The translations under genes and the position numbers were made by a program. From a phage, in sequence record PZ386980.1: DNA of 64,000 nt; one strand, given 5' to 3'. The notes below the pieces were generated by a model. That model saw only the letters and a program-made list of their open reading frames with translations, ran no database searches and was not told the DNA's origin. Below, one piece after another: positions 2,990-17,440 of the stretch; positions within the stretch are counted from its first letter, which is position 1; each line of letters opens with the position of its first letter.

Positions 2990-4314
2990 TTGATTTCCTC
3001 TAAATCTTTGGTGTATTCAGTAACTACATCAGTAGTTTTCCAATATTCGTTTTCTTCTTTTTTAGCTTTAGCTTCTTCAGCAAGTTTCTTTGCTTCATCG
3101 GAAGTCATATGAAAAATATTCATTCCAACTAGTTTATCAACATAAGAAGAATACATATCGATTTTCGAAAGTTCTTCGGTCAGTTCTTTACGAGTTTTAC
3201 CTTGAACAACAATTTCACCTGAAATTACTTTCTTAATGAAATGTGCCTTGGCAAAGGCTAAACGAAAAGCTGACTCAGTTTCTTTGATTTTGTTATCAAT
3301 TCGTTTTTGGACATAAGTTTTACGAACTTCAACAAAGTCTTTAATTAAATCGACTACGTTATCGTAAACTTGTAGTTTTCCTTTCTCATTAATAACCGTA
3401 ATATTCTGAGAACGACGCTCAATCAACCCGAAGTCTTTCATAATTTTTGCGTGGCGTTCTTCTTCATTATCGCTCAAAGAATATTCTTTACGGAATTTAA
3501 CTTTGAATCCAAAACCGTGCTCACCGCAAGCATCATCCCATGTAATGAAGCCTTTATCTTCAAGTGGGTCTAAAATTTTACTCACATAAGTTTCACGATC
3601 ATACTTATACGGAATCTCAGTGATATGCATTTGAGTTCGTGAAGTAAACTTATATGTTCCACGAATTTCATATTGCCCATCAATTTCAACGACTTCACCA
3701 CGAAATTCTGGGAATTCTACCTTCGGTTTAGTTACTTTCTTTCCTTGAAGAGCTTGTAATACAGCTTTCTTGACAGAAGAAACACTATGAGGAAGAATGT
3801 AAGTTGCATAACCAGTTGCAATACCGGAAACACCATTAAGAAGAACAGTAGGAATAATAGGCAAATAGAAAGCAGGCGGAATGTGTTCTTTATCTTGATG
3901 TACCGGAGCATATTCAGTATCTTTATATACGTTATAGAAATTTTTACTTACACGAGCAAAAATATAACGACTTGCTGCTGCTTTTTGGACGGTACGAGAA
4001 CCAAAGTTTCCTTGACCATCTAACAGAGGAAAGTTATTATTCCAAGTGTTAGCCATCAAAGCACCTGCGTCTTGTGCAGAGTTTTCGCCATGGTGATATC
4101 CAAGGTCCGCTACACCACCTGCAATAGAAGCGAGTTTGTGAAACTTATCTTTATTTCCTCGTGCCAAATCAAGAGCTCGAGCAATAACAAATCGTTGAAC
4201 TGGCTTAAATCCATCAATCATATTTGGAATAGCACGATTTTCAACCGTGTACATAGCATAAGCCAATGCTTCATTATCAATGATACTTTTTAAATCGCGA
4301 TTATTCAGTTGCAT
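2986..4314 (-). CDS. 52: DNA topoisomerase II medium subunit (GyrA-like)
   Basis: 442 aa; N-terminus MQLNNRDLKSIIDNEALAYAMYTVENRAIPNMIDGFKPVQRF is GyrA-like; length equals T4 gp52. Confidence 0.9.
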   Translation of the reverse strand: MQLNNRDLKSIIDNEALAYAMYTVENRAIPNMIDGFKPVQRFVIARALDLARGNKDKFHKLASIAGGVADLGYHHGENSAQDAGALMANTWNNNFPLLDGQGNFGSRTVQKAAASRYIFARVSKNFYNVYKDTEYAPVHQDKEHIPPAFYLPIIPTVLLNGVSGIATGYATYILPHSVSSVKKAVLQALQGKKVTKPKVEFPEFRGEVVEIDGQYEIRGTYKFTSRTQMHITEIPYKYDRETYVSKILDPLEDKGFITWDDACGEHGFGFKVKFRKEYSLSDNEEERHAKIMKDFGLIERRSQNITVINEKGKLQVYDNVVDLIKDFVEVRKTYVQKRIDNKIKETESAFRLAFAKAHFIKKVISGEIVVQGKTRKELTEELSKIDMYSSYVDKLVGMNIFHMTSDEAKKLAEEAKAKKEENEYWKTTDVVTEYTKDLEEIK

Positions 4315-4318
4315 AAAT

Positions 4319-4459
4319 TTACCATACTAGTGAATGTAGTGCCATAATAACATCAGAAATGAAAAGCACGACTTGAATTAATCCGAACATTATTCCGTAA
4401 TATAACGCTATCAATAAAATAACAAGGGTTAATGAATAGCCCAAGATTTTCTTAATCAT
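4319..4459 (-). CDS. small hydrophobic peptide (46 aa)
   Basis: own translation MIKKILGYSLTLVILLIALYYGIMFGLIQ...; in the position of the T4 ac/stp small genes. Confidence 0.35.
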   Translation of the reverse strand: MIKKILGYSLTLVILLIALYYGIMFGLIQVVLFISDVIMALHSLVW

Positions 4460-4694: not shown

Positions 4695-5138
4695 TTAATA
4701 TGCCTGCAAAACGAATTTAAAGTTATCAGCCAACATACGGTTCATTTCTTCAAGTGTTTGATACTCAGAATGATGATTACGAGTAAACGCTAAAGCTAAC
4801 TGACCTTTACCAAATCCCGTCGTCAGAGGTTTCATCTTAGAAGCAGGCAGATAAAATACTGTGTATGCCATATTGTTATTTGCAATAGTACGCGCAAGCT
4901 GAGACCGGCGTTGACGAATATGACTTAGAACTGCGCTGAATCCTTGCTTAGAACGCTGATTACCAACATAAAATCGTGCAGACACACATGAACCATCGAA
5001 TTCACTTACTAAAAAGTAAAATCCAGGTTTAGATAAAATGTCTTTATGTGGAGTTCCCAAAAACCACTCACCGCCCTTGATTGTACCAATAACAGTAGCG
5101 CCTGCATTATTCAGATCAGTAACAGTCATATATTTCAT
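4695..5138 (-). CDS. possible Ndd nucleoid-disruption protein (147 aa from MKYMTV)
   Basis: track ORF trimmed to ATG preceded by GAGGAAA; size and position between 52 and denB fit T4 ndd; identity by synteny only. Confidence 0.45.
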
Positions 5139-5198
5139 ATTAATTTCCTCTAAATTATTTTCTACTCCAAGGCCGTATGTATTCATACGGCCATTAAA

Positions 5199-5414
5199 TT
5201 AATCGTCGCAGTCGACGCTCAATTCCCAAAACTCTTCTACAGTATAAGTTTCAGTATCATTTTCAATACAGAAACGTTCATTACTATTATTTTCTAAAGT
5301 AGCATTAACTGTCGGTTTCTCGCTAGTGCTCTTAAGAGGTGAAATACGAATTAACTGATCACCGTTATCTAAACAGAAAATTTCACCAACTTTTACATCT
5401 TTAAAACTTTTCAT
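5199..5414 (-). CDS. hypothetical protein (71 aa)
   Basis: ORF track. Confidence 0.45.
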   Translation of the reverse strand: MKSFKDVKVGEIFCLDNGDQLIRISPLKSTSEKPTVNATLENNSNERFCIENDTETYTVEEFWELSVDCDD

Positions 5415-7076: not shown

Positions 7077-7271
7077 TTATTTGAATTGTGCAATTCTTTT
7101 CTCTAAACATTCAGCATAAGATTTCATTGAGATAAACTGCGAAAGTAGCAGTTCTTGCTCAACTGCGCTAACTGTTAGAAACTTTGCGCTTTCTAAAAAT
7201 TTACTCAGTGCATTAATTTTGAGCATTAATTGATCGTATTCTTCTTTTACTCGTGCTTGATAACCTAACAT
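7077..7271 (-). CDS. hypothetical protein (64 aa)
   Basis: ORF track; AAGGA SD upstream. Confidence 0.5.
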   Translation of the reverse strand: MLGYQARVKEEYDQLMLKINALSKFLESAKFLTVSAVEQELLLSQFISMKSYAECLEKRIAQFK

Positions 7272-7299
7272 AATTTTCCTTAGTTAAGGGCCGAAGCCC

Positions 7300-8238
7300 T
7301 TATTTAAATTGTTCAGTAACGTCTTCAACTACTTCGTATTGGCAGGTACGCATTTTAGCATCATTGTAATCAATCGGAATTGATACTACATCACGTGGAT
7401 GTACTTTAACTTTTACAACTCGGCTGGTTGAACCACCGAAGTGACGAATATAAGATTTAGAACACACATGCAGACCACGAGAACAAGTTTGTGTATCATC
7501 GTCATTCACACGAGTACGTGGCATTTTAACTACTTTACCAGGACTGTTATCAAAGGTGTTTGAGTGACAGTCAAAGTAATTGCTGCGAACTACTTTCCAA
7601 GCATAGAAGTAACCATCTTCTGTAATTTCAATATCGTTTGCTACCAAGAAATCAAAAAGTCGAGATACCGCTTTCTGGCTTGGGTTTTCCAGCAGATTTT
7701 CCAAGAACGGAAAATAAAATTCAAAGTTTTCGCCTTTTTCCATCGAATCAAGAATACGATCAACCAAACCAGACCGCAATTCAATATTTTGATAGAATAA
7801 GCTTCCACCTTCAATTCGAACATCGCCGGAAATATATTTTTCAACAGCGCGACGAACATTAATTTTTTGTGCCGCTTCTTCCAGCTTATCCGCTACAAGC
7901 AGATTGAGAATTTCCTGGAAGTTTGAATGAGTATTAGGTGTTGCATTATAAGTTACACCATCGACAGTAATCGAAATGAATTTTTTAGATGCATTCCAAA
8001 TAATGTCAGATTTAGTAACTGGAGCAATAACTGCATCGCTATTAACTTTAACTGTAATATCACCGCTAATAGTAACTTTAGAGCGTTTAGCTTCTTCAGC
8101 ATTTTTCAAAACACGACGGATTGTATCAACCGATACACCTTGCCAATCAGCCAATTCCTGCTGAGTATAATTACCGCTTGAATACAGTTTAACAATTTCA
8201 GCTTGTTCGTTTTTGGTCAGGCATTTAATATTGTACAT
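7300..8238 (-). CDS. rIIB: rIIB rapid-lysis / membrane-associated protein
   Basis: 312 aa, MYNIKCLTKNEQAEIVKLYSSGNYTQQELADWQGVSVDTIRRVL...; length and sequence match T4 rIIB from memory. Confidence 0.9.
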   Translation of the reverse strand: MYNIKCLTKNEQAEIVKLYSSGNYTQQELADWQGVSVDTIRRVLKNAEEAKRSKVTISGDITVKVNSDAVIAPVTKSDIIWNASKKFISITVDGVTYNATPNTHSNFQEILNLLVADKLEEAAQKINVRRAVEKYISGDVRIEGGSLFYQNIELRSGLVDRILDSMEKGENFEFYFPFLENLLENPSQKAVSRLFDFLVANDIEITEDGYFYAWKVVRSNYFDCHSNTFDNSPGKVVKMPRTRVNDDDTQTCSRGLHVCSKSYIRHFGGSTSRVVKVKVHPRDVVSIPIDYNDAKMRTCQYEVVEDVTEQFK

Positions 8239-10654: not shown

Positions 10655-10700
10655 TTTGCCCAATTAATTATACCACATCCTTGTGGTAAAGTAAACTACT
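10655..10700 (-). promoter_or_regulatory. early promoter for the rIIA.1-rIIA-rIIB unit
   Basis: minus strand GTTTAC - 17 nt - GTGGTATAATTA; the ~30-bp core recurs at 57689-57720. Confidence 0.5.
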
Positions 10701-12513
10701 GGCTCATCCATTCTTTACGAAGGTCAGCATTATCTCCCATGAGCATTTCAAAAAGCTCTTTCCAGTTCTCAGGAAGTTTAACAACATCATATACTGGATT
10801 TTGAATCATCTCACGATATTCAGATTTTTCCAAAGAGCCAAGTCCCTTAATATAACGGATACTATGTTTAGGTAGAGCATCTTTAGCACTCTCATATTCA
10901 GCGACTGTATAAAACCATTCTTGTTTTTTACCGACCTGAGCGATGATTACAGGAGTTTTGACAAAGCGAATTCGTCCTTGCTCAAACAGTTCTGGCCAAT
11001 TACTAAAAAATCCAAGAAGAGAAGGATAAATGCTTCCTAGACCATCATGGTCAGCATCAGTCATAATAGCAATATTGCGATAATTCAAGTTTTCAGCTTT
11101 TTCACCAAGAACTAGACCAGTGATTGCGCAAATATCAAATAGTTCTTTGTTTTTAAGCATATCGGCATATGACATACCCCAGCTATTAAGAACTTTACCG
11201 CGCAATGGATAACCACCATGAAGTTCTTTATCGCGAACATCAATAAGATATCCGATAGCTGAATCACCCTCAGTCAAGAACAATGTAGTGTCAGCATCTT
11301 TACCGCAAAGATTCGCTTTAATATGTTTATGAACCTTAGCTTTAGAAGCCTTTTTAGCTGCTTTAGTTTCTGCTGCTTTTTCTGCCGCCAATTTACGAGC
11401 CAAAGCAGCTTCAATAATCGGCATTAAAATTGCTTCATTATTTAGAATAGCGCGTGAAATCTTTTTAGCATCAAGCTGAATATGACTACGAATTTCGCCA
11501 AATGGAGAAGTCAAACGCTCTTTAGTTTGAGAATCAAATCGCATGTTTTTCATATCACGAACAAACATAACGATAGTCAAACATTCTTTGACACGTGCTT
11601 TAGTTACATCAATTTTGAATTTACGTTTGATTTGTGGAATAAGGTCTTCACAAATATCATCCATAACGCAGTCAATGTGATGGCCACCATTCTTAGTGTG
11701 AATGTTATTCACGTAAGTTAATTGACGAAATCCATCCGGTGAACGACCAACCGCAATAGAACAATTTTCTTGTTCTTGAACGATAGCATGTTCATCATAC
11801 TGTCGTGCATATTTCTTAAAATTGCCCTGAACCTTTTTACCATTAAAGGTAAATTGAATATCAGGATAAACGACAGCAAGTGTCTGGAGACGATCCAGTG
11901 TAATGTCAAGATAAACCTGGGACAGCTCATTAGTTTCAAATGACATAAAATCAGGAATGAAAGTAACACGAGTTCCTTTCCATTTTCCAGGAATAGTTTC
12001 CCAGGATTTATTTTCCATACCATTTGAACAACGAACTACAATATTATTTTGACCATCGCCAGTTTCACCAACAAACATCACAGAAAAAATGTTTGTCAAA
12101 CTAGAACCAACGCCATTCATACCACCGGTGACGCGTTCTTTATCATCACCGAAGTTACCACCTGCTTTTGGAATAGTCCAGGCAGCAACAGGACCAGGAA
12201 TTTCTTCACCAGTAGGTGTTTTAACCATCGCTTGTGGAATACCACGACCGTTATCTTCAACTGTTACTTGATTGTTTTTGATAGTAACATTAATTTTATT
12301 TGCGAATTTAAACTTAGTACGAATACCTTCATCTACTGAGTTATCGATAATTTCATCAATAAGCTTAACAAGACCAGGTACATACTGAACACTTTCCCAT
12401 TTACCAAACAGAAAGCGCTCATGCATTTCATTAGCAGAAGAGCCAATATACATGCCGCTACGCTTTTTGATATGTTCAATATCGCTCAGAATTTTAATTT
12501 CATTCTTAATCAT
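10696..12513 (-). CDS. 39: DNA topoisomerase II large subunit (GyrB-like), uninterrupted
   Basis: 605 aa from ATG at 12511-12513 (track start is GTG one codon upstream); GyrB-like N-terminus; ...DADHDGLGSIYPSLLGFF... is contiguous. Confidence 0.9.
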   Translation of the reverse strand: MIKNEIKILSDIEHIKKRSGMYIGSSANEMHERFLFGKWESVQYVPGLVKLIDEIIDNSVDEGIRTKFKFANKINVTIKNNQVTVEDNGRGIPQAMVKTPTGEEIPGPVAAWTIPKAGGNFGDDKERVTGGMNGVGSSLTNIFSVMFVGETGDGQNNIVVRCSNGMENKSWETIPGKWKGTRVTFIPDFMSFETNELSQVYLDITLDRLQTLAVVYPDIQFTFNGKKVQGNFKKYARQYDEHAIVQEQENCSIAVGRSPDGFRQLTYVNNIHTKNGGHHIDCVMDDICEDLIPQIKRKFKIDVTKARVKECLTIVMFVRDMKNMRFDSQTKERLTSPFGEIRSHIQLDAKKISRAILNNEAILMPIIEAALARKLAAEKAAETKAAKKASKAKVHKHIKANLCGKDADTTLFLTEGDSAIGYLIDVRDKELHGGYPLRGKVLNSWGMSYADMLKNKELFDICAITGLVLGEKAENLNYRNIAIMTDADHDGLGSIYPSLLGFFSNWPELFEQGRIRFVKTPVIIAQVGKKQEWFYTVAEYESAKDALPKHSIRYIKGLGSLEKSEYREMIQNPVYDVVKLPENWKELFEMLMGDNADLRKEWMSQ

Positions 12514-12534
12514 CACTTATCCTCGTTTGGTTTC

Positions 12535-12582: not shown

Positions 12583-12852
12583 TTATTTAAAACGAATAGT
12601 TGAATCCTTAAAGAACAGCCCAGAACATACTGTTCCTTCTACTTTCTGCCCAGTAGGTCCAATAGCACGAAATCCAGTATGTTGGAAATCATTTTCAGAG
12701 CAACCGAACCAGTTATATCCAGTGATTTCAATATTCGTAAAACCACTTGATGATAAAATTTTAGTTGCATTATCAGCATCAGTACATCCTACTAAAGATA
12801 CTGCTAATACTAATGCTGCAATAGAACGATTAATATATTTCATAGTTTTCAC
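12583..12852 (-). CDS. predicted lipoprotein (89 aa)
   Basis: signal peptide with lipobox LVGC (MKTMKYINRSIAALVLAVSLVGCTD...). Confidence 0.5.
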   Translation of the reverse strand: MKTMKYINRSIAALVLAVSLVGCTDADNATKILSSSGFTNIEITGYNWFGCSENDFQHTGFRAIGPTGQKVEGTVCSGLFFKDSTIRFK

Positions 12853-13223
12853 TTAAATTTAATGGCTTGAAGGAGACTAATAATTCTCAAACGGCTTCTT
12901 TCATCTTTAACTGTAAAAGAAAGAGGGTCGCCAGATTTCATGGTAATAGTGCATTCAAAATCAAAATCTTCAGTGACTTCTTCGAAGAAGTCAAATTCTT
13001 CATCATAAATTAGAACACTACTTTGCAGACTGTGAAGAGTTTTTCCAGCATTTCTGCTAACTGCTGTACTAATCATTGTAACATTATGACCTTTCATATC
13101 TTCGACGATAAATTCACTAGTCAATATTACAGCATTAATAGAACTATTCCTATTACTAGCAGAAAGTAGAAATTTCTGTTCTTCACCTTCACGAATACGA
13201 TATTTCTTACCAATTTTAAACAT
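12849..13223 (-). CDS. hypothetical protein (124 aa)
   Basis: ORF track; ATGA overlap with upstream gene. Confidence 0.5.
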   Translation of the reverse strand: MFKIGKKYRIREGEEQKFLLSASNRNSSINAVILTSEFIVEDMKGHNVTMISTAVSRNAGKTLHSLQSSVLIYDEEFDFFEEVTEDFDFECTITMKSGDPLSFTVKDERSRLRIISLLQAIKFK

Positions 13224-13225
13224 AA

Positions 13226-13402
13226 TTATCCCTTAAGTAAGTCGTAAAATCCACCATTCACATGCTTAGGAGCAGAAGGCCGACGAGTAGACAAACGATG
13301 ACATTTAGGACAAACATCATTTTCTCGTTCAGAAATCTTTTTAATTTTTTCATATTCATGCCCGCAATCTTTAGATTGGCATTTATAATCATACATCGGC
13401 AT
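13226..13402 (-). CDS. small zinc-ribbon protein (58 aa, two CxxC pairs)
   Basis: own translation MPMYDYKCQSKDCGHEYEKIKKISERENDVCPKCHRLSTRRPSAPKHVNGGFYDLLKG; below track cutoff. Confidence 0.45.
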   Translation of the reverse strand: MPMYDYKCQSKDCGHEYEKIKKISERENDVCPKCHRLSTRRPSAPKHVNGGFYDLLKG

Positions 13403-13404
13403 AA

Positions 13405-13830
13405 TTATTCCTTAAAATGTGCTTTCAACATCTGATACAAGGACCATGCCTGTTCATTATTTTCAATAGTAACTTTCATGACTGGAAATTCTGTGAAATC
13501 TTCTATTTGTTCTTGCTCTTTCTCTTCCTGCTCTTGCTCTTCAGCTGCCTGGTATGGATTTTCCACTTCATCAAAGAACACAGCTTCACTCGTTGAAAGC
13601 CAGATAAAATCTTCATCCAAAATATCTTTACCAGAAGATAACGCCAATTTTCCACTAGATGTCACAAGTTTAGTAGGACGACCAAGATAGTCAATATCTG
13701 TAACTCTAAAAGGTTCCATACCAAGACGTCGTGCATAAATTCCGTTTTCAGTATGGTCCTTGATAAAATCTTCTTGAGCTTGTTTATTTTTAAATTGATA
13801 CCATTTATTAACTTCAAATTTAATAGCCAT
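13405..13830 (-). CDS. hypothetical protein (~142 aa), acidic [11 protein letters not shown] tract
   Basis: ORF track trimmed to second ATG (MAIKFEV) to remove overlap. Confidence 0.5.
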
Positions 13831-14045
13831 TAATAAGTTTCCTTCCAATAAGTTGTACCATCTTCAGTAATTTCGCGAAACACACCATAAATTGGTTGTT
13901 TATCACCAACTTTTTCGTACACATAAACCGAAGTCAAGTGAGTAAACTTATTAGTATGTTCCTTTTGAACTACTACCAGATTTGGATCAAATAATACATC
14001 TTCAAATTCGTCATTAGTGCAATTCTGAACAATTTTACGTTTCAT
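13830..14045 (-). CDS. hypothetical protein (71 aa)
   Basis: ORF track. Confidence 0.45.
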
Positions 14046-14058
14046 TACAATTTCCTCA

Positions 14059-14328
14059 TTAATTGAACAGTGGAGCGATGCGTTTCAGAAGAGTAGCAGC
14101 ACCTTTAGCGAATTTTACATCATGAAAAACAGTTTCTTCTTCCGTTACAACACGAACTTTAATGTTTTCACAATCCCAATTTTTACGAACAATCTTCAAA
14201 AGCTGCAGTAAATCTTTACATTCAGCAATATCGATAACACATCCACGAGAATCTTCCATTATCGCACGATAACCGTAAGCCATACCATAATCGTTGAAAG
14301 ATTGCTCGATGATAATTAAGTTTTCCAT
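14059..14328 (-). CDS. hypothetical protein (89 aa from ATG; track start is TTG)
   Basis: ORF track; ATG at 14326-14328. Confidence 0.5.
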   Translation of the reverse strand: MENLIIIEQSFNDYGMAYGYRAIMEDSRGCVIDIAECKDLLQLLKIVRKNWDCENIKVRVVTEEETVFHDVKFAKGAATLLKRIAPLFN

Positions 14329-14341
14329 TTTATTCTCCAAG

Positions 14342-14400
14342 TTATTTTCTGTATCAGTAGTTGATATTGATATAGTACCATAATCAACTACTGATGTATA
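14342..14400 (-). promoter_or_regulatory. promoter-early-stem-loop element
   Basis: inverted repeat ATCAGTAGTTGAT ... ATCAACTACTGAT enclosing GGTACTATAT. Confidence 0.45.
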
Positions 14401-14435
14401 TAGTTTTATGAAAAAATTTTAAACTTTATGCAAAT

Positions 14436-14855
14436 TTATGCTAAAGCTGCTTCGCACCATTTTTTAATTTGGAATTCAGGAACTACCATGAACTGGCCTG
14501 CAAAAACAATATTGTAGAGCTTGACACCATCTTCTACCCAACGGTCCGAAATAAAACCAGCGACTTGATTCGTTGTCCATGGAGTTCCATCTGTTGCCGC
14601 CGCAATTGTGAATTTATGGTCTTTTACAACTAAAACTGAAGAACAAAGTTTCCATTTAAATGCGCTTTCTTCTGGCTCAATGAACTGACTTGAGACATAG
14701 CCAATGTTACCATCAGCGTCACGAACTTTAACCTCGTTACGACCAAAAACTGGATCACTTACAGAAAGAACTTCAACCAGCTTTCCTGCAACTTTAGAAC
14801 GAGAAGCAACGGATACATATACGTAATCACCAGTAGAGAGATTTACAATATTCAT
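14436..14855 (-). CDS. paralog family member A (139 aa), unknown function
   Basis: shares C-terminal module GFISDRWVEDGVKLYNIVFAGQF and N-terminal SRSKVAGKLVEV with the next ORF. Confidence 0.55.
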   Translation of the reverse strand: MNIVNLSTGDYVYVSVASRSKVAGKLVEVLSVSDPVFGRNEVKVRDADGNIGYVSSQFIEPEESAFKWKLCSSVLVVKDHKFTIAAATDGTPWTTNQVAGFISDRWVEDGVKLYNIVFAGQFMVVPEFQIKKWCEAALA

Positions 14856-14864
14856 AATAATTCC

Positions 14865-15338
14865 TTAAGCTTTACGAGGAGAAGCATAACGAGTGATTTC
14901 AGATTCTTCAACAACCCGGAAGTCACCTAAGAATACGATATTGTAGAGCTTTTCACCATCTTCAACCCATTGGTCTGTGATGAAGCCACACATCCTATCA
15001 GTTTTACTTGGACCAGCGAAATCATCAATATAATCGAATTCTTCATCAGTTACAAATTCAACGCCTTTACACAACGCCCATTTAAATTGTGCATTAGACT
15101 CAGTGGATTCAACTTCTTCAACAGAAGTAAAATGAGAGCTAACACGAGTTTCCAGAAATTTAGGACTTACGTAAGCGTACTGAGTTTCAGTTTTTCCAGA
15201 ACTAGGAATGATTCGAACTTTAACTTCTTTAACACGACCAGTACCATTAGTACGAAGTCCTACCACTTCAACTAGACGACCTGCAGCTTTAGAACGAGAT
15301 GCAGACGATACACGCTTAATTTCACCGATAGTAATCAT
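14865..15338 (-). CDS. paralog family member B (157 aa), unknown function
   Basis: C-terminal GFITDQWVEDGEKLYNIVFLGDF; N-terminal SRSKAAGRLVEV. Confidence 0.55.
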   Translation of the reverse strand: MITIGEIKRVSSASRSKAAGRLVEVVGLRTNGTGRVKEVKVRIIPSSGKTETQYAYVSPKFLETRVSSHFTSVEEVESTESNAQFKWALCKGVEFVTDEEFDYIDDFAGPSKTDRMCGFITDQWVEDGEKLYNIVFLGDFRVVEESEITRYASPRKA

Positions 15339-15410
15339 AATTTTTCTCTCTTTGTTGTTAAGATTTATTCTCCATGAGAGCCATTATAACAGGCTCTCTA
15401 TAAAGTAAAC

Positions 15411-15920
15411 TTAATTAAGGATATTAATTACTGCACTGCGTGGAACTACACTAAAATCACCTGCATGAACAACGTTCAGAAGTTCAACACCATCTTCAAG
15501 CCACTGGTCAGTTACCCAACCACTTACTGGACCAGCAAATGGTCGACGAATTGAAACAGCTTTACACAACAAGTCAGTAGGCTCGATAGGCTTAACCAGA
15601 GTACCGTACATACAAGCAATGTCCATATCAAAGTGGAGACCAGTGCTAACAGGTGCTTCTTCAATCAACAATTCGAAATCTTGTTCTGTAATATAGACCG
15701 TAGATATTGTACCATATAAGTTTTTAATTCTTAAGAATGATACAGATGAAGCTGTGGCAGTTGATGCAAAAATAGGACCAGCATTTACAATAGTGAAACC
15801 TTTACCTTGGGTAACACCAATAAGCTCGCAAAACTTACTATAAGAACCATTATTTGCTTCAAACCAGTTTACTTGCTTTTCGTCTTTCAGGATGTAAGTA
15901 GCTGTAGTACTGATATTCAT
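15411..15920 (-). CDS. paralog family member C (169 aa), unknown function
   Basis: C-terminal GWVTDQWLEDGVELLNVVHAGDF; N-terminus unrelated to A/B. Confidence 0.55.
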   Translation of the reverse strand: MNISTTATYILKDEKQVNWFEANNGSYSKFCELIGVTQGKGFTIVNAGPIFASTATASSVSFLRIKNLYGTISTVYITEQDFELLIEEAPVSTGLHFDMDIACMYGTLVKPIEPTDLLCKAVSIRRPFAGPVSGWVTDQWLEDGVELLNVVHAGDFSVVPRSAVINILN

Positions 15921-15932
15921 GATGTTTTCCCC

Positions 15933-16436
15933 TTAATCTAAGGTAATAAAGCCTTTTAATTCGGCATGTGACTTGCGGAACATTACTTGATGACCGCCAA
16001 TGATAACTTGGTCATCAGGTACTTCGTATACAGCGAGATAAAATCCTTTAGAAGCTAATTCTTCGCGCTCTTCTCGTGTGAACCATCTCATCATATCATA
16101 TTCGCTAGCGAAAGCAAAATGATAAAGAGCTATAAACCATCCTGGAATATAGTGATCTACGCCTACATATTCTTCTTTCTCAAAATTAGTATTAATTGCT
16201 ATATTAGCATTTTTAACTAATAATTTGTCTTCATGCGGCACAGGAATTCTTTTATTATCATTACTATGATGCATAAAATTGGGTCTGTCATAACCTACGC
16301 GTAATAACCACTCTTCGCTCCATGAATCTATTATACTCCTGTATGGCGTTATTTGAACACAAAGATCTCGACGTATTGTTATAGCATCTTCATAATTAAG
16401 AATACTAAATGATGATTCAACACGATAAATTTTCAT
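15933..16436 (-). CDS. hypothetical protein (167 aa from MKIYRV)
   Basis: track start is TTG; ATG at 16434-16436 preceded by GAGGA. Confidence 0.5.
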   Translation of the reverse strand: MKIYRVESSFSILNYEDAITIRRDLCVQITPYRSIIDSWSEEWLLRVGYDRPNFMHHSNDNKRIPVPHEDKLLVKNANIAINTNFEKEEYVGVDHYIPGWFIALYHFAFASEYDMMRWFTREEREELASKGFYLAVYEVPDDQVIIGGHQVMFRKSHAELKGFITLD

Positions 16437-16454
16437 TTTATTATCCTCAGTAGC

Positions 16455-16495
16455 TATGGTGTTATAATACCACAACTAACCGAGGAAGTAAATAA
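16455..16495 (-). promoter_or_regulatory. candidate early promoter
   Basis: minus strand ATTTAC ... GTGGTATTATAAC. Confidence 0.4.
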
Positions 16496-16499
16496 CTTT

Positions 16500-17183
16500 T
16501 TATCGTTTTGTTGGAAGAGATAGAGGATCGCATTCTTCCTCTGATGGAGCGTCTTCAAGACCCATAGCATAGCGCAAAGCATACTTCATCATCAGGATGT
16601 CTTTCGCACAGTCATGAATAGAATCATGCGCAACGAATCCATCTAAAGTTCCTTTTGGAAGAGGACACGTGGTCATATCACGAACAAGGAGAAGTGCTTC
16701 AATTCTGGTACGAATATCACGCTGATTCCAGAATTTACATGGTTCTAACTTAAATGTGTCAAGCTCATTCTCGGAAACGCCGTTAAGACGTTGAATATCG
16801 CGAATGAGATCGACTAAAATTGGAAAATCAAACGACATTCCACGGCACCAGCCTTGAGATTTCCAAGGATCGATATTATGCGCATTGATGTAATCATTAA
16901 ATTTTGCAATACCATCGATAGTGCTTACATCTTCATCTGATGGCGCAATATTTTTTCGAGCTTCAGGAGATTGATTCTTCCACCATTCGATAGTGCTTTT
17001 AGTAAAAAGACGATGTCCTTTTTGGCTTTTTAAATCAAATTTGATTTTAATGCCACGTGAAACTAATTCATCAAATGTTTCAACGACTTCTGGATTAGGG
17101 TCAAAAGCAATTACAGCCAAATCAATAACAGCTGCTTTTTCACCGCTTCCCATTGTTTCAAAATCTATAATAAAATCAAACAT
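16500..17183 (-). CDS. dexA: DexA 3'-5' exonuclease A
   Basis: 227 aa, MFDFIIDFETMGSGEKAAVIDLAVIAF...; matches T4 DexA from memory. Confidence 0.9.
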   Translation of the reverse strand: MFDFIIDFETMGSGEKAAVIDLAVIAFDPNPEVVETFDELVSRGIKIKFDLKSQKGHRLFTKSTIEWWKNQSPEARKNIAPSDEDVSTIDGIAKFNDYINAHNIDPWKSQGWCRGMSFDFPILVDLIRDIQRLNGVSENELDTFKLEPCKFWNQRDIRTRIEALLLVRDMTTCPLPKGTLDGFVAHDSIHDCAKDILMMKYALRYAMGLEDAPSEEECDPLSLPTKR

Positions 17184-17440
17184 TAAATTTTCCTTGCTAA
17201 ATCGCGAATTTGACCTACAGTATAATCTTGGATATAAACTTTATTAATAGGCTCATCAATAAATTTTGCCATAGATTCAATATCTTTTTGTATCTCTTCA
17301 AGACTGTATACTATCTTTAAAGCTTTTTCGCGAATAGTAACATTATCAGGTCCTGGATTTTCTTGAATGACAGCTTTAACATTTGTCATAAGAGATTTAA
17401 ACTGGTACCAACTTAATTCAATCATTAATAATCGCCTCAT
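17183..17440 (-). CDS. small protein, tandem paralog 1 (85 aa)
   Basis: ORF track; shares LEEIxxDL ... DYxxGxI pattern with the next two ORFs. Confidence 0.45.
   Translation of the reverse strand: MRRLLMIELSWYQFKSLMTNVKAVIQENPGPDNVTIREKALKIVYSLEEIQKDIESMAKFIDEPINKVYIQDYTVGQIRDLARKI

Follow-up and report, generated by a model that had tools for sequence, protein, structure and literature searches.

Three neighbouring genes in a 64-kb stretch of phage DNA (sequence record PZ386980.1, 64,000 nucleotides, called the window in the following) encode small proteins that resemble each other at their C-terminal ends. An earlier note on this DNA had seen in them a pattern known from host-interaction or anti-defence families, but had assigned no function. 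The locus raises the question to which family the three genes belong, how far the resemblance extends, and what the shared end might do behind differing N-terminal parts.

Identity of the three genes and extent of the shared domain

The 2.8-kb stretch around the triplet shows 100% identity to phages RB51 and RB68 (Tequatrovirus, Straboviridae) and 94-98% identity to many further T4-like phages. The triplet is located on the minus strand in the early region that extends from gene 39 (topoisomerase subunit) to dda. In RB51 the genes follow each other, in ascending coordinates, as 39, 39.1, RB32ORF005c, 39.2, goF, cef, RB51ncORF009c, RB51ncORF010c, motB, motB.1, motB.2 and dexA. According to GenBank/RefSeq, ORF1 is RB51ncORF010c ('similar to motB and RB32ORF010c'), ORF2 is motB and ORF3 is motB.1. 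The early non-essential region of Tevenvirinae between cef and dexA is also where the annotations of RB51, T4, RB69 and HX01 place the MotB family. The three genes and their parts are as follows.

14436-14855, minus strand: ORF1 (RB51ncORF010c), second MotB-type paralog, 139 aa, from the ORF list and the RB51 annotation
ORF1, aa 1-60, minus strand: KOW-like head, net charge -1
ORF1, between head and shared C-terminal domain, minus strand: linker, very short
14439-14660 (ORF1, aa 66-139), minus strand: shared C-terminal domain
14865-15338, minus strand: ORF2 (motB), 157 aa
ORF2, aa 1-63, minus strand: KOW-like head, basic, net charge +7, pI 10.4
ORF2, aa 64-83, minus strand: linker, disordered and acidic
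14868-15089 (ORF2, aa 84-157), minus strand: shared C-terminal domain, acidic, net charge -7
15411-15920, minus strand: ORF3 (motB.1), intact form, 169 aa
ORF3, aa 1-90, minus strand: head, beta-rich with two helices
15588-15629 (ORF3, aa 98-111), minus strand: conserved motif DMDIACMYGTLVKP in a linker modelled with low confidence
15414-15584 (ORF3, aa 113-169), minus strand: shared C-terminal domain

All three proteins score above the gathering threshold (25 bits) of the Pfam family PF17613 ('motB, modifier of transcription'), ORF2 with 141.2 bits over its full length, ORF1 with 72.1 bits and ORF3 with 33.7 bits, where the match is limited to the C-terminal 69 aa (aa 96-164). In PHROGs, ORF1 (E=9.8e-51) and ORF2 (E=2.7e-68) match phrog_1671 (MotB-like transcriptional regulator) over their full length. 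ORF3 belongs over its full length (aa 1-169) to phrog_2333 (E=6.7e-77), with a secondary C-terminal match to phrog_1671, and shares 46-76% identity with full-length relatives. The architecture of a KOW-like head followed by the conserved C-terminal domain was found for ORF2 in the AlphaFold2 model and for ORF1 through its full-length alignment to ORF2 and to PHROG 1671. The head of ORF3 differs from the KOW-like head of the MotB family in both sequence comparison and AlphaFold2 model, and therefore ORF3 is a MotB.1-type member and not a MotB orthologue. The triplet consists of motB-family early genes of phage RB51, namely motB, an intact motB.1 and a further paralog of the MotB type. The gene family has been named, curated and published, in a group of phages that is well studied, and is thus already known. 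The statement that no function can be assigned is outdated, since the proteins are members of PF17613 and are named in the RB51 record.

The ORFs of 139, 157 and 169 aa, together with the peptides quoted for them earlier, were all found on the minus strand. In BLASTP, ORF1 and ORF2 align over essentially their full length with 40% identity (E=1e-29). The matches of ORF3 to ORF2 (50% over 42 aa, E=2e-11) and to ORF1 (57% over 30 aa, E=1e-10) are confined to the C-terminus. In hhalign, the profiles of the two C-terminal subtypes matched each other along 52 columns with a probability of 99.3% (E=1.3e-20). When the entire 64-kb window was searched in six frames with tblastn, there were exactly three copies of the module, namely those of ORF1-3 (cross-hits with E 4e-8 to 1e-9), and no further copy below E~0.6. 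The C-terminal similarity is far above chance and the module is genuine; the earlier note had left open that alignment might find it not significant, and pairwise and profile alignment both found the opposite. The true domain is longer than the ~30 aa first reported. Alignment with relatives places it from the 'LCKAV/LCKGV' strand to near the C-terminus. It measures ~57 aa in ORF3; in ORF1 and ORF2, which have an insertion (13 columns in the hhalign alignment, 15-17 aa in the module alignment), it measures ~74 aa.

ORF1 and ORF2 are, as their alignment indicates, tandem full-length duplicates, and ORF3 is an unrelated head on a MotB-type shared C-terminal domain. MotB-type genes occur in 778 records (tblastn of ORF1 against 50,697 phage records), and 208 of these carry an ORF1-type copy (at least 80% identity) besides motB. 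With ORF3 as query 748 records were matched, 311 of them over 80% or more of the protein, while in many others only residues ~108-169 are matched, with 70-84% identity and behind other heads. With a profile of the module alone, an exhaustive HMMER search of 1.84 billion representative proteins yielded no more than 34 hits (E <= 0.001). About 26 of them are credible, and in all of these the module is C-terminal in a protein of 101-251 aa. Six matches of 774-1544 aa, each made up of 4-7 short stretches, were rejected as spurious because P0246, the one that was inspected, consists of Ig-like repeats and contains the motif 'GYQWQKNGV'. Among 254 retrieved members, KOW-like heads were counted on 113 MotB-type and 10 MotB.1-type C-terminal domains, and the other heads fall into at least four length classes, some of them apparently doubled. 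Such varied heads on a constant C-terminal module point to domain shuffling and not to divergence of one head alone. The proposal of duplication followed by head divergence thus stands for the duplication of ORF1 and ORF2 but has to give way to shuffling for ORF3.

The linker also contains a recurring element. The motif D-x-D/N-x3-4-M/L/A-Y, represented by DMDIACMYGTLVKP in ORF3 and often followed by TLxKP, was found in 30 retrieved MotB.1-type proteins. It recurs with different heads, KOW heads included, is absent from T4-type MotB.1, and may be a short linear interaction motif. Separately, a metagenomic protein of 43 aa (P0245, MKIYRVESSFSILDYEDGVELLNVVHAGDFSVVPRSAVVAILN) matches the start of motB.2 with its first ~16 residues and the end of the MotB.1 C-terminal domain with the remainder. 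This two-part match looks like a deletion fusion across a 'YED/EDG' junction in some phage (compare 15933-16475 and 15411-15500 of the window).

Much of this agrees with published work. From an alignment of 102 phage homologues, Patterson-West et al. (2021, PMC7827196) distinguished four categories: proteins MotB-like in both domains, two groups that share the C-terminal domain behind other N-terminal domains, and a 29-aa RB69 peptide. 'Category 2' includes MotB.1. A duplication origin of motB and motB.1 is proposed there, and extra copies are described in some genomes, with two motB, one motB.1 and the 29-aa peptide in RB69. As the shared domain, the differing heads, the proposed duplication and the extra copies were all published in 2021, the core of the finding is already known.

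Putative expression signals and interrupted motB.1 genes in reference genomes

Each of the three ORFs is preceded by a Shine-Dalgarno-like sequence (AAGGA for ORF1). The start codon of ORF1 follows the motB stop after 9 nt, and given this spacing ORF1 is probably co-transcribed with motB. Three further elements were noted between the genes.

15383-15410, minus strand: T4-early-type promoter-like element GTTTAC-16 nt-TATAAT directly upstream of motB, read from the sequence as a consensus match only
15376-15398, minus strand: inverted repeat GAGAGCC/GGCTCTC overlapping the motB promoter-like element
14353-14395, minus strand: perfect 13-bp inverted repeat ATCAGTAGTTGAT - 17 nt - ATCAACTACTGAT in the 95-nt gap from the ORF1 stop to RB51ncORF009c

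At the same position T4 keeps GTTTAC...TATAAT, and its repeat arms are GGGACC/GGTCCC. These arms differ from those in the window yet are complementary, so pairing is kept by different bases. The repeat upstream of motB may form a hairpin in the RNA where the motB.1 message ends (3' end), or it may be regulatory. A generic sigma-70 scan of 13300-17400 found 18 promoter-like sites, which is not above the 15.8 +/- 4.2 obtained in shuffles, and did not list the GTTTAC-type element upstream of motB; a terminator scan of the same interval found none.

The intact length of ORF3 deserves attention, as motB.1 is interrupted in two reference genomes. In the T4 reference (NC_000866.4) MotB.1 stops after 119 aa, within the shared domain ('GWVTDQWI|GRWR*'). 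The frameshift is caused by a 1-nt insertion, an extra G in TGGATTGGAAGATGG, and the remainder of the domain, LEDGVELLNVVHAGEYSVVPRSAVVAILN*, is intact in the next frame (locus 4143-4330, record ~7142-7329; compare window 15411-15560). The extra G is missing from T4T (HM137666) and T4 'wild' (KJ477684), in which MotB.1 has 143 aa, and a 143-aa protein whose C-terminal domain is identical to the out-of-frame remainder of T4 (P0016) was seen on 256 contigs. In the RB69 reference (NC_004928.1, locus 4877-5373) motB.1 (132 aa) and RB69p012 (29 aa) appear to be one motB.1 gene split by single-base insertions unlike that of T4. This would account for the 29-aa peptide that was listed as 'Category 3' in 2021. 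In HX01 (Mosigvirus) motB.1 is intact with 164 aa. Programmed frameshifting was considered for the split genes of T4 and RB69 and rejected, because the lesions differ, the sites are non-slippery and two T4 records lack the T4 insertion.

Since the T4 reference frameshift lies inside the conserved domain, functional studies that used the 119-aa form may have overlooked what this domain does. In PMC12152347 the size of MotB.1 is given as 13.8 kDa, corresponding to the 119-aa form, and no frameshift is mentioned. That motB.1 is intact in two other T4 genome records and in most relatives may be of use for work on T4 early genes. Next to the proposed division of labour between heads and shared domain, this frameshift is the residual value of the present analysis, which carries little weight as a discovery.

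Predicted folds, charge and a possible division of labour

AlphaFold2 with family alignments produced two-domain models with disordered linkers, with a mean pLDDT of 79.6 for ORF3 and 81.2 for ORF2. The model of ORF2 consists of two beta domains, and the C-terminal domain reaches a pLDDT of about 83-94 in the models of both proteins. This domain is modelled with five strands, of which strands 4 and 5 are separated by a short helical turn; its first hairpin is longer in ORF2, which agrees with the sequence insertion. For MotB a KOW-like N-terminal domain and an OB-fold C-terminal domain were predicted in PMC7827196. An OB topology is defined by a five-stranded barrel with a helix between strands 3 and 4. 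In the models the shared domain looks like an SH3/Tudor-like five-stranded barrel rather than an OB-like one, both being small beta-barrels; we base this assignment on the topology and on the overlap of two hit lists. SH3-like small beta-barrels (Tudor, chromo, PWWP, BAH and KOW; e.g., the 53BP1 tandem Tudor 3lgf/5zcj) show only 6-24% identity, and the likeness is one of fold class, no evidence of homology or of methyl-lysine reading. PDB sequence searches with the MotB profile and the module profile returned chance-level matches only (E >= 0.47). The module did not turn out to be a well-known structural domain of trivial function, which the earlier note had named as an outcome that would refute its reading.

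Foldseek against predicted viral structures returned relatives of MotB.1 and MotB as well as a KOW-domain protein from Serratia phage PS2; GoF was matched weakly. For the head of MotB.1, a predicted LSm-like fold common to GoF and Frd.2 was described by Kim et al. (2025, PMC12152347). The Foldseek match of the ORF3 model to a GoF protein has a probability of 0.99 but E=0.03, and hhalign of the MotB.1 head profile against GoF of the 64-kb window was not significant. As a side observation, RB32ORF005c (124 aa, 12849-13223, minus strand) weakly matches Pfam FRD2 (E=0.061) and aligns weakly in hhalign with the full MotB.1 head profile (E=0.0033, probability 9.8%), with which it has the motif I-Y-D/E-E-D/E-F-x-L/F-x-E-E in common. 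RB32ORF005c may therefore also belong to the GoF / Frd.2 / MotB.1 head family.

Charge and selection separate the parts of these proteins. In ORF2 the whole protein is acidic (pI 5.4), and in ORF3 every part is. Over 57 MotB-type proteins the mean charge is +5.4 for the head and -2.5 for the C-terminal domain; over 49 MotB.1-type proteins it is -3.3 for the C-terminal domain and -7.4 for the whole protein. All three genes are under purifying selection, with dN/dS of 0.14 for ORF1 and 0.23 for ORF2 against RB69, and of 0.28 for ORF3 against HX01, where the head reaches 0.33 and the shared C-terminal domain only 0.035. The SH3/Tudor-like barrel model, the split between acidic and basic parts and the strong constraint on the shared domain are what is new here.

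Function is established for T4 MotB alone, to which the published reports on tight DNA binding, toxicity and an altered H-NS footprint refer (PMC6070864, PMC7827196). It is described there as an abundant early protein that binds DNA nonspecifically and tightly, is toxic on overexpression and alters H-NS binding. According to PMC7827196, it changes the DNase I footprint of H-NS and up-regulates 75 host genes, about a third of which are in the H-NS regulon. The idea of a host-interaction family is borne out by these properties.

Taking all this together, the explanation that we favour, with slightly more confidence than doubt, is a MotB-family triplet with heads that would bind nucleic acid and a shared barrel that would contact protein. 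From composition and selection, DNA binding is more plausibly assigned to the basic KOW-like head, which would be the main site of nonspecific binding. The shared C-terminal barrel would most likely mediate a conserved contact with protein: the paralogs may associate with themselves or with one another, or they may bind a common host or phage partner. In each protein a flexible linker joins the N-terminal head to the family-defining C-terminal domain, and the three genes would put differing heads on one interaction platform. ORF2 would be the DNA-coating, H-NS-remodelling member, whereas ORF1, with a head charge of -1, and ORF3, acidic in all its parts, would have specialised or modulating roles and not be redundant DNA binders.

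A narrower form of this explanation, in which the barrel would be a dedicated docking or hetero-oligomerisation module that brings basic KOW, charge-neutral KOW and LSm-like heads to a common target or to each other, is tentative and in our view rather unlikely. If it were true, the triplet would be a combinatorial nucleoid-remodelling set instead of three redundant DNA binders. The negative results with T4 MotB.1 may then stem from a module-less protein, provided that the clone followed the 119-aa annotation.

The alternative closest to the published structure prediction takes the shared C-terminal domain, as an OB-fold, for the DNA-binding domain. All paralogs would then coat DNA nonspecifically, much like nucleoid-associated proteins, and the heads would tune the choice of partner or the DNA preference. 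We consider this doubtful, because the shared domain is on average acidic and is the most constrained part, which fits a protein contact better than nonspecific DNA binding. A set of anti- or counter-defence proteins, in which each head-swapped paralog neutralises a different host immunity or silencing factor, seems improbable. The genes are early, non-essential in the laboratory and located in a variable region, their copy number varies (the second ORF1-type copy is present in 208 of the 778 matching records), the family has many head architectures, and H-NS silencing of foreign DNA, which MotB alters (PMC7827196), may be regarded as a defence. However, literature searches found nothing that ties these genes experimentally to a defence system, the sole mention in an anti-defence paper being a speculative DNA occlusion by MotB, and the T4 motB.1 deletion is reported with wild-type burst size and latent period (PMC12152347). 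For the anti-defence role that the earlier note had thought possible, no evidence was found.

Still less probable is an action of ORF3, and possibly of the others, on RNA. In this case RNA, or else the machinery of transcription and translation, would be bound by the LSm-like head in MotB.1 and by the KOW-like head in MotB, so that elongation or the stability of mRNA would be modulated. Against this idea stand the lack of an effect of MotB.1 in the mCherry reporter assay of PMC12152347, the T4 transcriptome, which is barely altered upon motB knockdown (PMC6070864), and the sequence-profile comparison of the ORF3 head with GoF given above.

Comparison with T4, RB69 and HX01

ORF2 is the positional orthologue of T4 MotB (NP_049626; 162 aa), to which it aligns end to end with 46% identity (E=6e-48). 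Like its T4 counterpart, it is located directly downstream of motB.1, above cef and below dexA in coordinates. T4 MotB, ORF2 and ORF1 have the same architecture of KOW-like head, linker and C-terminal domain. However, T4 MotB is basic (pI 9.2) whereas ORF2 is acidic overall, and ORF1 departs from the family in that the positive charge of the head is lost (-1 compared to a mean of +5.4) and the linker is almost gone. T4 has no counterpart of ORF1 or of its small neighbour RB51ncORF009c. Like T4 MotB.1 (NP_049627), ORF3 is encoded upstream of motB and has a C-terminal domain related to that of MotB. In difference to the truncated T4 reference protein it is the intact form of 169 aa, and it has the extra linker motif DMDIACMYGTLVKP, which T4-type MotB.1 lacks. 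Elsewhere in the window, gene 39 (10696-12516, minus strand) encodes an unsplit 606-aa topoisomerase II large subunit, the T4 equivalent of which is split into gp60 and gp39, the gene for the latter having 1551 nt in the T4 record.

The closer likeness is to phages of another genus. RB51 is classed as a Tequatrovirus, RB69 and HX01 as Mosigvirus; nevertheless RB69 MotB is 85% identical to ORF2 and RB69p010 is 87% identical to ORF1. RB69 and HX01 have the same triplet order of MotB.1, MotB and a 139-aa MotB-like protein, whereas motB.2 is found downstream of the triplet in these phages and upstream of it in RB51. Within 14059-15338 of the window, motB and the extra MotB-like gene are of the RB69/HX01 type, with 85-87% identity compared to 46% and ~37% to T4 MotB, and where RB51 carries RB51ncORF009c and ORF1, T4 (locus 3483-3654) has only a 170-bp gap. 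The pattern of sequence identity suggests an exchange of cassettes between the genera in the variable motB region.
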